From the IMG/VR virus record IMGVR_UViG_3300011269_000001: 64,000 nt of DNA; one strand, written 5' to 3'. The position numbers and the translations under genes are program-made. Positions 57,960 to 62,518 of the stretch are shown here, piece by piece. The stretch's first letter is position 1. The number at the start of each line of letters is the position of its first letter. The stretch is from a virus. Below the pieces are notes generated by a model. That model saw nothing but the letters and a program-made list of their open reading frames with translations. It was not told the DNA's origin and ran no database searches.

Positions 57960-60548
57960 ATGGCACAAAGCTTTATTACAGACCAAGGCACCCTGATAAT
58001 CCCAGGCGGTTATCCGTCTATTCGAGTTCAGACCGCGGCCAGTGGTCTTGCGACCTCCGGCGTCATCATGCTCGTCGGCGAAGCTGACCAAGGCCCGGAC
58101 TTTACGCTTGAAACAGACCTGGAGACAACCTCCGCCTTCGGTCCTGACCAGCTGTCCTCAGTGGTGGCGAAGTACAAGAGCGGCAACTTGGTTGATGGAT
58201 TCCGTGCCGCTGCTCAGGCCTCGAACGACCCGCAGATTACCGGTGCTCCGTCCAGAATCATCCTCGTCAAGACGAACCCCAGTACCAAAGCCAGTGCCAC
58301 GGCCCTGACCTGGGGTGCGTTGACTTGGACCCTGGCTGACCGTAGCTTCGGCAAGCTCGGGAACCTCATCAGCTTTACTGTCACCGCGGCTACTTCCGAA
58401 GTTGTTCCCACGACCGGTTCCTTTACCTGGATTCCGAACGCCGGGACTACGGCATACAATGTCCGTATCAACGGCGGTGCTGCACTGACCAGCGGTAACT
58501 TGGCTGCGAATACTTCTCCTGCTGCCTTCGTGGCGGCAATCGGTGGTCTTGCCGGTATCACGGCTATCGGCGGTGCTGACAGAGGCATTCTCGCAGCTGC
58601 TGCCGGAACCCTGGCAGTTGTAGCCAACCCCGGCGGTGCCGGTGTCACGGTTGTCACCGTCACCCGGAGCATCAACTTCGACGTAATCCCGACGGCCGGC
58701 GATACAATGATTATCCCCCTCGGCTCTGTAATCGCCGGGGCCGGTAGCGCAAACGTCGGTGCATACGTTGTCACGGCTGCAACGGCAACGGTCATCACCG
58801 CACAAAAACTCAGTGACGCCGGTGCTGCGGCCCCGGTTCCTGGAACCATTACCAATCCCGTCAACGTGGCTGCGGCTGCTGTCGTGGCTACGACAGATGT
58901 TCAAGCCAAGGCTCCGGTTACGGTCAGCCTCGCGGCTGCAAATCCTGTCGACGGTATCGGCAAGTCTCTGGAAATCAGCGAACTGACGACCGGCACGGAC
59001 CTGCTCAGTCGCAGCACCTTCGCTCTCGGCGTACTGCCTGTGACCTGGGTCAGTAAGGCCCTCAGCCCCCAGAACCTGGTCTCTGCGACCGAATACCGGG
59101 CTACTTATACCGGCAGCCGTCAGGTCGACAACGTCCTTGAGACCTTGACTGCGGGCGGCGAAATTGCCTTGCTGATGAGCTATAAGGGCACGACCGCCAC
59201 TGTCACCATTACTGCCACAACCTTCAGCACCACGGTCACCGGCGGCACCGGTGCCGGCTTCAGTATCAACCTCAGGGATTACCCGACCATCAACGACCTG
59301 GTGAAGTTCATCAACGCCCAGACCGGTTATACGGCAGCAGTCGGTACCGCGGTCCTCGGACAGATTGTCCTCACGACCCCGGGTGCGAACATCGGCCAAG
59401 CTGCTCTGACGGCTCTCGACCAGGGTACCTTCGGCATCTGCTCGACCCAGGGTGTTCAAAACGGCCGCATCAAGATTGACAGCTTCCGGTTCTTCAACGC
59501 CATCAACAACAACAGCGTCCTACTGCAGACCGGCACGGGTCTCTTCCCGACGCAGGCGACTGCCGGCGTTCCTCAGCCCACGGCCCTGACCTTCTTGGCC
59601 GGTGGAGCCAAGGGTGGAACCACGGCCGTGAACTACAACGCGGCAATCGACGCCCTCCAGAAGGCCCGCGGAAACTTCGTCGTCCCCCTCATCAGCCGTG
59701 ACGCGACACTGGATATTGCCGATGGTCTGACGGAAACGACCAGCACCTATACTATCGACGCGGCTAACGCGTATACGAATACTCACTGTCTGACAATGTC
59801 CACGCTGAAACGGCGTCGGAACCGTCAATGCTTCCTCAGCAAGGAAGATACGTTCCTGAACCAGAAGCTCGCGGCGGCAAACATCGCCAGCTTCCGGGCT
59901 GCGATGTGCTTCCAGGACCCGAAGGTCGTGGCAGCCAGCACCGGCAATATCACTCAGTTCCAGCCCTGGATTACGGCCTGCGTTGCAGCCGGCATGCAAG
60001 CCGCTGGATTCCGTCTCGCCATCGTCAACAAACAGTTGAACATCTCCGGACTCGTGAACCGTGCCGGCGACTTCAACGACAAAGACGACACCGCGATGGA
60101 AGACGCTCTGAACAACGGTCTGCTTCCTGCCCGTCGTGCCGTTACCGGTGGATTTACTTGGGTCAGCGACCAGACGACTTACGGTAAGGACAACAACTTC
60201 GTCTTCAATAGCATCCAGGCCGTGTATACGGCTGACGTCATCGCCCTGACCACTGCTCAACAGATGGAAGCCCAGATTGTCGGCCAGTCGGTCGCTGATA
60301 TCAGCGCCCCGATTGCACTGTCTATGCTGGAAGCCATCATGGGGAACTTCCTCCGGCTCAAGCTCATTGCCCCCAGCGATGATGCCCCGAAGGGTTTCAA
60401 GAACGCAGCCGTGGCCATCATCGGCGGCAAGGCTCTCCGTGTGGACGTGGAAATCAAGCTCGCGACGGCAATCTACTTCGTGCCTATCAGCTTCCTGGTC
60501 AGTCCAGTGAATCAATCGGCCGGCTCCAGCAGCGGACCTACGAGATAA
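57960..60548 (+). CDS. Tail sheath protein
   Basis: IIPGGYPS...LVGEADQGP at the N-terminus; LAGGAKG, VSDQTTY...NSIQ and IYFVPISF at the C-terminus; directly before the tube gene. Confidence 0.9.
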   Translation: MAQSFITDQGTLIIPGGYPSIRVQTAASGLATSGVIMLVGEADQGPDFTLETDLETTSAFGPDQLSSVVAKYKSGNLVDGFRAAAQASNDPQITGAPSRIILVKTNPSTKASATALTWGALTWTLADRSFGKLGNLISFTVTAATSEVVPTTGSFTWIPNAGTTAYNVRINGGAALTSGNLAANTSPAAFVAAIGGLAGITAIGGADRGILAAAAGTLAVVANPGGAGVTVVTVTRSINFDVIPTAGDTMIIPLGSVIAGAGSANVGAYVVTAATATVITAQKLSDAGAAAPVPGTITNPVNVAAAAVVATTDVQAKAPVTVSLAAANPVDGIGKSLEISELTTGTDLLSRSTFALGVLPVTWVSKALSPQNLVSATEYRATYTGSRQVDNVLETLTAGGEIALLMSYKGTTATVTITATTFSTTVTGGTGAGFSINLRDYPTINDLVKFINAQTGYTAAVGTAVLGQIVLTTPGANIGQAALTALDQGTFGICSTQGVQNGRIKIDSFRFFNAINNNSVLLQTGTGLFPTQATAGVPQPTALTFLAGGAKGGTTAVNYNAAIDALQKARGNFVVPLISRDATLDIADGLTETTSTYTIDAANAYTNTHCLTMSTLKRRRNRQCFLSKEDTFLNQKLAAANIASFRAAMCFQDPKVVAASTGNITQFQPWITACVAAGMQAAGFRLAIVNKQLNISGLVNRAGDFNDKDDTAMEDALNNGLLPARRAVTGGFTWVSDQTTYGKDNNFVFNSIQAVYTADVIALTTAQQMEAQIVGQSVADISAPIALSMLEAIMGNFLRLKLIAPSDDAPKGFKNAAVAIIGGKALRVDVEIKLATAIYFVPISFLVSPVNQSAGSSSGPTR

Positions 60549-60566
60549 GTGAAGGGGTAAGATAAA

Positions 60567-61040
60567 ATGGCTCCACCGAAAGTCCTACATGGTGCCCGCG
60601 CACAGCTGATGATTGTCGACCCGAATACCGGGGACAGCAAAGTCGTGGGCATCTTCAACAACGTCTCGTACAGTCTCATCTACGACGCGCAGCCAGTTTT
60701 TATCCTCGGTCGCTTCAGCGCCGCGGAAATTGGTTACACGGCGATGGAACCGATTCAAGTCACGGCCACAGGCTGGAGAGTTGTGAATGCCGGCCCGCAT
60801 CGGGTCGCGAAAGTCCCCCGGCTACAAGACCTCATCCGCCACGAGTACTGCGAATTGGCTCTCTTTGACCGCCAGACGAACCAACGCGTGGCCAAGATTC
60901 ACGGCCTCCGACCGACTGGGTATTCAACGACGGTCACGTCCCGTCAGTTGGAAGAGATTACCGTTACATGGATGGGTCTGTTACTTGACGACGAGGACAC
61001 GGACAACGTCGAGGGCACCGGCGCAAGCGACTTACCGTAA
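60567..61040 (+). CDS. Tail tube protein
   Basis: 157-aa beta-rich protein directly after the sheath; PVFILG...EI motif; followed by a terminator. Confidence 0.85.
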   Translation: MAPPKVLHGARAQLMIVDPNTGDSKVVGIFNNVSYSLIYDAQPVFILGRFSAAEIGYTAMEPIQVTATGWRVVNAGPHRVAKVPRLQDLIRHEYCELALFDRQTNQRVAKIHGLRPTGYSTTVTSRQLEEITVTWMGLLLDDEDTDNVEGTGASDLP

Positions 61041-61044
61041 AATT

Positions 61045-61084
61045 AAGAGAAAGGCATTCAAATAGTCTTGAATGCCTTTCTCTT
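61045..61084. terminator. Bidirectional terminator between the tail operon and the RAMP/array locus
   Basis: Perfect 17-bp stem AAGAGAAAGGCATTCAA / TTGAATGCCTTTCTCTT with a 6-nt loop, between convergent units. Confidence 0.85.
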
Positions 61085-61349
61085 TTACCATGCTAAGTCC
61101 GGGCCACGCCGGGCCGCTCCTCACCGAACCCTGCTCCGCCTAGCCTGCTTTGATGTGCTTCGCCTTGCTTTGCCCTACCAAGCCAGGCCGCGCCTTGCCT
61201 TGCCTGCTTTGATTTGCCCTGCTCAGCCTAGCCTAGCTGCTCCTAGCCGGGCCAAGCCTGCTTTGCTAGTCCTTGCCCTGCCTGCTTTGTCATTGCTCTG
61301 CTCGACCACGCCATGCCTTACCCGACCGCGCCACGCCCGGCCTGCTTTG
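61085..61349 (-). repeat. Pentameric (GGY-NN)n array in five units delimited by CAAAGCAGGC; candidate guide-RNA array
   Basis: GCCTGCTTTG (+ strand) at 61143, 61202, 61256, 61280 and 61340, with strict 5-nt periodicity between copies. Confidence 0.9.
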
Positions 61350-61353
61350 AAAA

Positions 61354-61803
61354 CTACTTTTGTGACTTCCGAGACTGCAACGACTTCCGTGCCTTTGCTA
61401 CTTCCTGTCGAATTGCGGCAAGTTCCTTCAGAGTCTTATACTTCTCACCAGCTCGTTCGTATTCCTCCAATGCTTGAGCCAGGAATGCCGCCCGTTTCTG
61501 CGCGTTGCTCAAGACGCTAACAAGTGTGACGTATCCTTCCTTTCCACGGGAGACGATTGGTGATACATAGGTTTGTTCTTCTCTGCCGTCAGGGTAGGTG
61601 ACCCGAACTTCCGTGATGATTTCTCGGGCCTGCCAGAGTCTGTACTCGCGACCGGCAACAGTATCATCCCACTCGAATCTGGAGTGCAGGGCACTGTCAG
61701 GATGACTTTCTGCCCAATCCACGACAACCTCGGGCTTGAGGCCACCATGTTTTTCGTAGAGCTTAGATAGCTCATCTACAATGGCTTGCGATTTCTTGTT
61801 CAT
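61354..61803 (-). CDS. Partner protein of the RAMP gene (helical, unknown function)
   Basis: ATGA overlap with the RAMP stop; LKPEVVVDWAESHPDSALHSRFEWDDTVAGREYRLWQAREII. Confidence 0.75.
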   Translation of the reverse strand: MNKKSQAIVDELSKLYEKHGGLKPEVVVDWAESHPDSALHSRFEWDDTVAGREYRLWQAREIITEVRVTYPDGREEQTYVSPIVSRGKEGYVTLVSVLSNAQKRAAFLAQALEEYERAGEKYKTLKELAAIRQEVAKARKSLQSRKSQK

Positions 61804-62453
61804 TTTGTCTCCTCTGTTTTTGCGATTCTGAAAGTGCCCCAACCCATGCCGGCTGAGTCTGTGGAATCGGGACGGCCGGCGCCGATACCGACCTGCATAC
61901 CCATTCGTGCAAGTAGATTTGTCACGTCGGTCAAAGTGAATTGGTCCGCGTCATAACAAATCTTCGGATTTGCTTCCCAGCCCTCGGTCCACATGGGTCT
62001 TGGTCTGATGTCAGCAACACCCGTCTCATTACGAACGGCGAAGTCTGTGCGGATTGGCTCGCCTTTAGTAATCTTGACCAGGGGTTGAATCCCGAACCGG
62101 TCTCGTTCGTAGCCATCAGGCACCACGAAGATACTGAGCTTGGCGAGAGTCATTTTGAAATTCACTAGCCGACAGGTAGAAATCAGCCCTCCCCGAAATG
62201 CGCTGGCCGGAATTCCTGCCCAGCCTTCTTCAGAGAAGTGGGTTGCTTCTTTGAAGCAAAGGTCGAAATCTTTTGCCTCTCTTTTGCCCTTCTTGGCTGT
62301 ACTGCCTGCCGCTTGAGTTTTGGCCATACCTTCTAGGGCCCGTTGAGAAAACTTGTTCTGAACCATCGGGGCGGTACCGATGATTTTGAACGCTGCGGTT
62401 AACAGATTGGGAGGGGTAATCGCAACGGCTTCGCTCTTGTTTTTGAATGCCAT
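61800..62453 (-). CDS. Stand-alone RAMP / Cas7(Csm3)-like RNA-binding protein
   Basis: N-terminal strand KIIGTAPMV, GIPASAFRGGL (RAMP IPGSSLKG motif), C-terminal G-rich loop GIGAGRP...GMGWGTF; RBS AAGGAG. Confidence 0.75.
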   Translation of the reverse strand: MAFKNKSEAVAITPPNLLTAAFKIIGTAPMVQNKFSQRALEGMAKTQAAGSTAKKGKREAKDFDLCFKEATHFSEEGWAGIPASAFRGGLISTCRLVNFKMTLAKLSIFVVPDGYERDRFGIQPLVKITKGEPIRTDFAVRNETGVADIRPRPMWTEGWEANPKICYDADQFTLTDVTNLLARMGMQVGIGAGRPDSTDSAGMGWGTFRIAKTEETK

Positions 62454-62479
62454 TTCAGTTGGCTCCTTTGATTTTTAGG

Positions 62480-62518
62480 ATACTAACACAGTCCCAAACG
62501 GAAATCAACTGTGATTTC
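62480..62518 (-). promoter_or_regulatory. Promoter of the RAMP operon with an overlapping palindrome
   Basis: TTGATT-17-TAGTAT. Inverted repeat GAAATCA-ACTG-TGATTTC (62501-62518) covers the -35. Confidence 0.6.

Follow-up and report, generated by a model that had tools for sequence, protein, structure and literature searches.

What is encoded by a tract of fixed triplets and changing dinucleotides on the minus strand of a large viral genome? The tract lies within a 64,000-nt stretch of DNA (the window), taken from the minus strand of a virus record that is 164,871 bp long and has direct terminal repeats. We find that the tract, with its five-base repeats, encodes an array of guide RNAs (vrRNAs) belonging to a VIPR system. 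VIPR systems are CRISPR-related, RNA-guided DNA silencers of phages, and the element described here is a real example of this already known kind. They were first described in 2026 in two preprints (bioRxiv 10.64898/2026.04.26.720920 and 10.64898/2026.04.26.720927).

Among RNA-guided DNA-binding systems, VIPR is a recent discovery and very compact, and CRISPR effectors have been proposed to descend from it. It comprises a single minimal RAMP protein (Vipr) that has an RRM core, a G-loop, and a thumb, an accessory gene (vap), and vrRNAs with 9-16 YNNGG repeats, and is divided into seven types (10.64898/2026.04.26.720920). The protein holds the GGY triplet while NN pairs with DNA, with one target base skipped per step, and silencing in trans has been demonstrated (10.64898/2026.04.26.720920). 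Cryo-EM of the VIPR system of Escherichia phage SUSP1 shows filament assembly, GGY sequestration, and gapped pairing (10.64898/2026.04.26.720927). The original prediction for the tract had likewise placed the guide information in the dinucleotides only, and had suggested that guides could ignore codon wobble positions if one target base is skipped per step. The first idea matches the published mechanism, and the second is the published rule (10.64898/2026.04.26.720920). More specifically, the tract at 61349-61096 is very likely a “staggered” array of about four full-length VIPR guides (vrRNAs A, C, D, and E) and a stub (B), predicted to form the 3' portion of the transcript of a vipr-vap operon in an uncultivated 165-kb tailed phage.

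Repeat grammar and units of the array

The array comprises five exact CAAAGCAGGC delimiters and 42 phase-locked pentamers (61349-61096, minus strand). After each delimiter, the pentamers consist of GGC, GGT, AGC, or GGA followed by NN. Information per pentamer position is 1.35, 2.00, 0.98, 0.04, and 0.03 bits (42 pentamers), which bears out the constant triplets, variable dinucleotides, and minus-strand delimiter that had been proposed. The G at pentamer position 2 is invariant (42/42). Canonical GGY makes up 31 of the 42 triplets, the other 11 (26%) being non-canonical (AGC, GGA). Pairs of GGY triplets occur 21 times at a spacing of 5, 17 times at 10, and 16 times at 15, and never at spacings of 1-4, 6-9, or 11-13; by comparison, 2000 shuffles yielded 0.8 spacing-5 pairs on average and never more than 5. 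No second such array was found in the 64-kb window or in the 164,871-bp genome.

On the minus strand, the motif CAAAGCA occurs at 61349, 61289, 61265, 61211, 61172, and 61152. Five of these six copies are CAAAGCAGGC, and the copy at 61172 sits in phase within unit D; seven other copies are present in the window when both strands are counted. The tract is thereby divided into five units (Table 1), for all of which the NN strings had been read correctly. The array had been placed at 61085-61349: its start holds, but it ends at about 61096, and 61085-61095 is the approach to a terminator hairpin. Similarly, unit lengths of 24, 54, and 59 nt are confirmed, although unit A measures 60 nt rather than 59 nt.

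Units A, C, D, and E carry 10, 9, 10, and 10 pentamers, respectively, as anticipated for full units (9-10 dinucleotides) and inside the published range of 9-16. Unit B (three pentamers) falls below this range. Being shorter than any guide of published length, it is probably a remnant or a delimiter duplication.

Units A and C share a pentamer pair, (A/G)GCAG (A/G)GCAA, close to their 3' ends, and the same pair is found at the start of unit B. Unit D carries the variant GGTAG GGCAA, and GGACT(T)AGCA terminates both units B and E. Units A, B, and C have their last two dinucleotides (AG, AA) in common, which may therefore be constant and not part of the guide. Part of the apparent guide may thus be a constant element or the trace of a unit duplication.

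The array RNA is without significant structure (z -0.6), as expected for a protein-coated guide. Its guide tracts are spaced only 7-10 nt apart, and there is no structured 3' tail. Tandem Repeats Finder does not report the array because the units differ from one another.

Table 1. Features of the VIPR locus, with positions numbered from the first letter of the window.
Feature	Position	Strand	Description
vipr leader	62454..62510	-	Weak promoter-like pair (TTGATT, 17 nt, TAGTAT); putative AAAGGAG ribosome-binding site before the vipr ATG
vipr gene	61800..62453	-	217 aa, coordinates including stop codon; lone Cas7-like RAMP
vap-like accessory gene	61354..61803	-	149 aa; ATG overlapping the vipr stop
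vrRNA unit A	61290..61349	-	CAAAGCA + 10 pentamers + TGA, 60 nt
Unit B	61266..61289	-	CAAAGCA + 3 pentamers + AG, 24 nt
vrRNA unit C	61212..61265	-	CAAAGCA + 9 pentamers + AT, 54 nt
vrRNA unit D	61153..61211	-	CAAAGCA + 10 pentamers + AT, 59 nt (39+20); in-phase CAAAGCA at 61172
vrRNA unit E	61096..61152	-	CAAAGCA + 10 pentamers; last unit, leads into terminator
Terminator hairpin	61037..61088		Hairpin with a stem of about 16-17 bp and a loop of 6 nt, followed by UUAAUUUUA

The Vipr protein, its accessory gene, and the operon

A lone Cas7-like RAMP is encoded upstream of the array. A profile of 38 sequences (the 217-aa protein and 37 homologs) matches PDB 36pp_D, “SUSP1 Vipr protein”, with an E-value of 1.3e-10 over 186 of 202 residues. 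A comparison with the Vipr of phage Alf5 (SUSP1 family) using hhalign gives a probability of 97.4%. The AF2 model of the protein (pLDDT 91.9) appears to fold like Cas7/Csm3 RAMPs: every top match that Foldseek gives in the PDB is a Csm3/Cmr4/Cas7 chain (E-values near 1e-5, probability 1.0). We found 3272 homologs; the protein matches phrog_4652 and belongs to no Pfam family. In some database homologs, such as P0118 and the long ORF in locus L012, the N terminus is falsely extended by translation of an upstream array. The repeats had also been considered as a TRAP-like site, a small-terminase pac site, or a G-quadruplex tract; these readings were dropped once the Vipr match appeared.

The vap-like gene adjoins vipr in nearly all related loci, as well as in Mycobacterium, Gordonia, and cyanophage records. 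Its product matches phrog_15946 and contains the conserved motif H..FEWDDTVA..YR..QAR. In its AF2 model (pLDDT 92.2), residues 1-95 have a weak likeness to winged-helix/Z-alpha folds (Z 5.3-5.6) and a helical hairpin makes up residues 96-149; a Foldseek search with this model returned nothing below an E-value of 2. This likeness hints at a DNA-binding role and fits, without proving, the published prediction that several vap genes encode DNA binders (10.64898/2026.04.26.720920). Similarity to the vap1 of the SUSP1 family is not detectable (probability 0.8% against Alf5 vap1).

On the minus strand of the window, the order is vipr, vap-like gene, array, and terminator hairpin. The ATG of the vap-like gene overlaps the vipr stop codon (ATGA coupling), and the array begins 5 nt past the stop codon of the vap-like gene. 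The hairpin has a fold of -26.5 kcal/mol (z -7.2) that was equaled in 0 of 200 shuffles, and was not listed by a simple terminator scan. From its sequence, it is predicted to end the vipr-vap-array transcript and to close the convergent gene for a tail tube-like protein, which is accompanied by a convergent tail sheath gene (phrog_279). The leader of vipr contains a candidate promoter and a candidate ribosome-binding site (Table 1); the TTGATT/TAGTAT pair falls below the threshold of a consensus promoter scan. There is no GGY array upstream of vipr at this locus. An Rfam scan of 60000-62500 gave nothing above threshold, with sub-threshold chance matches on the terminator hairpin only, and Pfam and NCBIfam searches of the neighboring ORFs returned no families.

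The locus carries the following features of VIPR: a Vipr protein, an accessory gene, the GGY/NN grammar, and hypervariable NN, within a viral genome. Its gene content, repeat grammar, hypervariable dinucleotides, and lack of RNA secondary structure are direct observations.

We compared the neighborhood with those of close-relative loci (L036, L038, and L039). The vipr-vap-array module lies between portal and capsid genes in L036, and beside HTH repressor-like and ERF/PDDEXK recombination genes in L038. As these neighborhoods differ from the tail sheath and tube genes found here, the module seems to travel as a cassette from one phage genome to another. A contig search for host clues matched only two MAGs, one from Verrucomicrobia and one from Hyphomonadaceae.

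Conservation and targets of the guides

A search with the accessory protein extended the comparison to 30 distant viral loci. We find same-strand GGY-NN arrays in 28 of 34 related loci, with almost none on the opposite strand. The 1397 same-strand pentamers in these loci carry 1.77, 1.56, 1.04, 0.09, and 0.00 bits per position, and the dinucleotides are thus far more variable than the triplets across relatives, in keeping with the original prediction. Compared with the arrays of close relatives, the NN strings of the present array show likeness at the level of shuffles, despite a vipr DNA identity of 70-71%. The arrays keep their kind, strand, and position beside vipr in loci whose proteins are 18-80% identical.

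Such conservation bears on whether the tract could be non-functional simple sequence, whether a slippage microsatellite, a quadruplex-prone G2N3 tract, or the coding sequence of a plus-strand ORF (61068-61520). GGNNN repeats could in principle form two-tetrad quadruplexes, and the 150-aa ORF does span the tract, running antisense to the entire array and into the vap gene. Slippage, however, duplicates whole units, whereas NN differ in nearly every unit here while the triplets stay fixed, a contrast with microsatellites that had been recognized from the start. The overlap of the ORF with the vap gene also argues against a coding role, and by our own derivation its length is expected from composition, since antisense NNRCC pentamers give a stop (TAG/TAA) only if NN is TA. 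Together with the conserved strand and position beside vipr, this makes a simple-sequence origin highly improbable.

A search for targets with the NN strings, set against shuffled controls, had been suggested as a check. In the phage's own genome, guide matches under skips of 0-3 nt are no better than those of shuffles, and there is no self-target; self-targeting is also absent in published VIPR phages (10.64898/2026.04.26.720920). Exact matches to the full-length patterns of A, C, D, and E with a 1-nt skip number zero each in IMG/VR. Using the first eight dinucleotides under the same skip, A has 14 IMG/VR matches in unrelated ORFs, none of which extend, C has 8 scattered matches, none of them wobble-phased, and E has a single match. 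In metagenomes, nine dinucleotides of E give 11 matches that reduce to six different sequences, among them a TetR-like gene and a gut contig; in these matches, the skipped base lies off the wobble position. Peptide motifs decoded from the guides have no matches among 120 listed Vipr homologs. These exact-match scans thus yielded no convincing target for guides A, C, D, and E. Because they required exact matches, they would not have picked up a target that is 80-95% identical.

One might therefore ask whether the array is decaying or orphaned, i.e., a VIPR descendant whose guides no longer direct anything. The empty scans are compatible with this, as are the 26% of non-canonical triplets and the three-repeat unit B, which suggest that some units may be decayed. 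For the array as a whole, we nevertheless regard this reading as improbable. The vipr and vap-like genes are intact and modeled with high confidence, and the second pentamer position has kept its G without exception. Furthermore, internal degeneracy is frequent in working vrRNAs, and an NN identity of 80% is accepted for guide-target matches in the published work (10.64898/2026.04.26.720920), to which exact-match scans are insensitive.

A broader test of the skip rule was made within the clade, by comparing 95 guides from all loci with 368 kb of related DNA under skips of 0-3 nt. We find that a 13-unit guide from a related virus (L022:3535-3599; IMGVR_UViG_3300031885_000098) matches the vipr gene of another (L034:3883-3920; IMGVR_UViG_3300031586_000023) at 24 of 26 positions with a 1-nt skip. 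The match is in frame: NN fall on codon positions 1-2 and the skipped base falls on the wobble position. Under skips of 0, 2, and 3 nt, the same guide scores 19, 19, and 18, respectively, against a maximum of 21 in 300 shuffles, and it matches the equivalent site of its own vipr at only 18 of 26 positions. The target site lies inside vipr 3754-4338 of L034, at residues M44-K56. Judged by sequence, this looks like an anti-VIPR guide. Published VIPR guides often aim at rival VIPR systems (10.64898/2026.04.26.720920). The match suggests that the published skip code, and the habit of targeting rival VIPR systems, hold in the broader clade.

This match also weighs against a role in cis, in which Vipr or a TRAP-type oligomer would coat the repeats of a 3' UTR and so regulate its own mRNA at the level of stability or translation, there being no target in trans. 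TRAP (the trp RNA-binding attenuation protein) binds sites of 11 (G/U)AG triplets separated by 2-3-nt spacers. A triplet plus a 2-nt spacer is therefore TRAP-site grammar too, and the array both starts just past the vap stop and shares the terminator of the operon. Both TRAP sites and the array have a triplet-plus-spacer grammar read by an oligomeric protein, but this is a resemblance only: the TRAP fold is unrelated, and TRAP spacers hold no information for a target in trans. Protein binding alone would not need dinucleotides that are fully hypervariable between relatives, nor would it account for a relative's guide that matches a rival vipr gene in frame. As published VIPR systems silence in trans (10.64898/2026.04.26.720920), we consider control in cis very unlikely.

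For the VIPR array, homology with the SUSP1 system suggests that Vipr protomers would polymerize along the array RNA, one per pentamer. Each protomer would bury GGY and expose two N bases. The exposed bases could then pair with double-stranded DNA that is read as NN-x-NN-x, the skipped base usually being a codon wobble position. Binding of the guide would in turn keep a competing mobile element from being transcribed. By analogy with the systems in the preprints, filament assembly, DNA binding, and silencing are to be expected at this locus.

Relation to known systems and the setting of guide boundaries

The locus shares features with type II VIPR (Escherichia phage SUSP1, Alf5) but differs from it in several respects. 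The order of vipr, vap, and downstream array is common to both, and the layout in Alf5 is identical. Also shared with SUSP1 (PDB 36pp) are the homology of Vipr (E 1.3e-10), the thumb and G-loop arginines, and GGY/NN repeats. However, vrRNAs of the SUSP1 type are GGT-rich and stand as separate units, about 100 nt long and each closed by a conserved pseudoknot tail, whereas those described here are tail-less and GGC-rich. The vap gene is unrelated to vap1 at the sequence level. Thus, neither the structured 3' pseudoknot tail nor the vap1 of type II is found at this locus.

Similarities to Class 1 CRISPR lie in the Cas7 backbone (Csm3/Cmr4), which has the RAMP fold, a glycine-rich loop, and a thumb that periodically breaks the guide-target duplex. 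In contrast to Class 1 CRISPR, the locus is without CRISPR repeats, cas1/cas2, or other cas genes; we found no repeat-spacer array (repeats of about 23-50 nt) and no Pfam cas families in neighboring ORFs. The period also differs. Vipr has a period of 5 nt with three bases sequestered, giving a non-contiguous guide, whereas Class 1 CRISPR has a period of 6 nt with one base flipped.

The closest resemblance is to the “staggered” vrRNA arrays, in which, according to the legend of fig. S18 in 10.64898/2026.04.26.720920, neighboring guides overlap by one base. Within what that legend describes, the locus and these arrays have in common a lone Vipr RAMP, one accessory gene, and GGY/NN guides of 9-10 units. 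In both, guides abut directly, the register shifts by one base from guide to guide, and structured spacers are absent. Set against the same legend, the locus adds CAA before the short unit, giving CAAAGCAGGC. The locus leaves knowledge of the VIPR class unchanged; its contribution is a complete example of the “staggered” kind, without a tail and carried by a large uncultivated phage.

Throughout the family, we find that guides meet at GGCAGGC, a pentamer minus one N, and the delimiter is a 4-nt short unit (RGCA) with a phase shift of -1. In related loci, unit lengths from GCAGGC to GCAGGC are 39, 44, 49, 54, 59, 64, and 69 nt, i.e., 5n-1, and in-phase runs are most often separated by 4 nt (63 cases). 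These 5n-1 units and 4-nt gaps agree with the “staggered” arrays as presented in the legend of fig. S18 of 10.64898/2026.04.26.720920. CAAAGCA had originally been proposed as a phase-resetting delimiter. The phase reset is borne out by these spacings and gaps, but only the RGCA before GGC is conserved family-wide, the CAA prefix being specific to this locus. We infer that RGCA, as a pentamer without one N, could break the register of the Vipr filament and so mark a guide boundary in the absence of a structured tail.

The Vipr residues that read GGY in SUSP1 are H17, R138, D177, W178, and R179 (10.64898/2026.04.26.720927). By alignment, the thumb arginine R138 and the G-loop arginine R179 are conserved as R152 and R194, respectively, while H17, D177, and W178 are replaced by N33, A192, and G193. 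[quoted passage not shown] These replacements and the insertion suggest that the details of recognition may differ from those in SUSP1. More distant relatives in the alignment keep the H and W, which indicates that the replacements are a feature of a subclade.

It is conceivable, if rather doubtful, that register alone sets guide boundaries in this Vipr clade, with RGCA before GGC stopping or restarting the filament so that no structured tail, ribozyme, or dedicated nuclease is needed, and that GGY is read by a rebuilt pocket (N33, A192, G193, and the G-loop insertion with W205), which may alter the code or the skip length. The Vipr clade is abundant, with its thousands of homologs, and three of its guanine-reading positions are not those of the solved SUSP1 protein. 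The locus therefore offers a reasonable place to study what fixes the ends of guides in tail-less arrays, and whether a 1-nt skip applies beyond type II.

Among the 120 listed of the 3272 homologs, a close subclade (about 60-82% identical) shares the three guanine-contact replacements and an insertion of the form PDSxxSAGMGW (D196-W205). The arrays of this subclade are still GGC/NN despite the changed guanine-contact residues.
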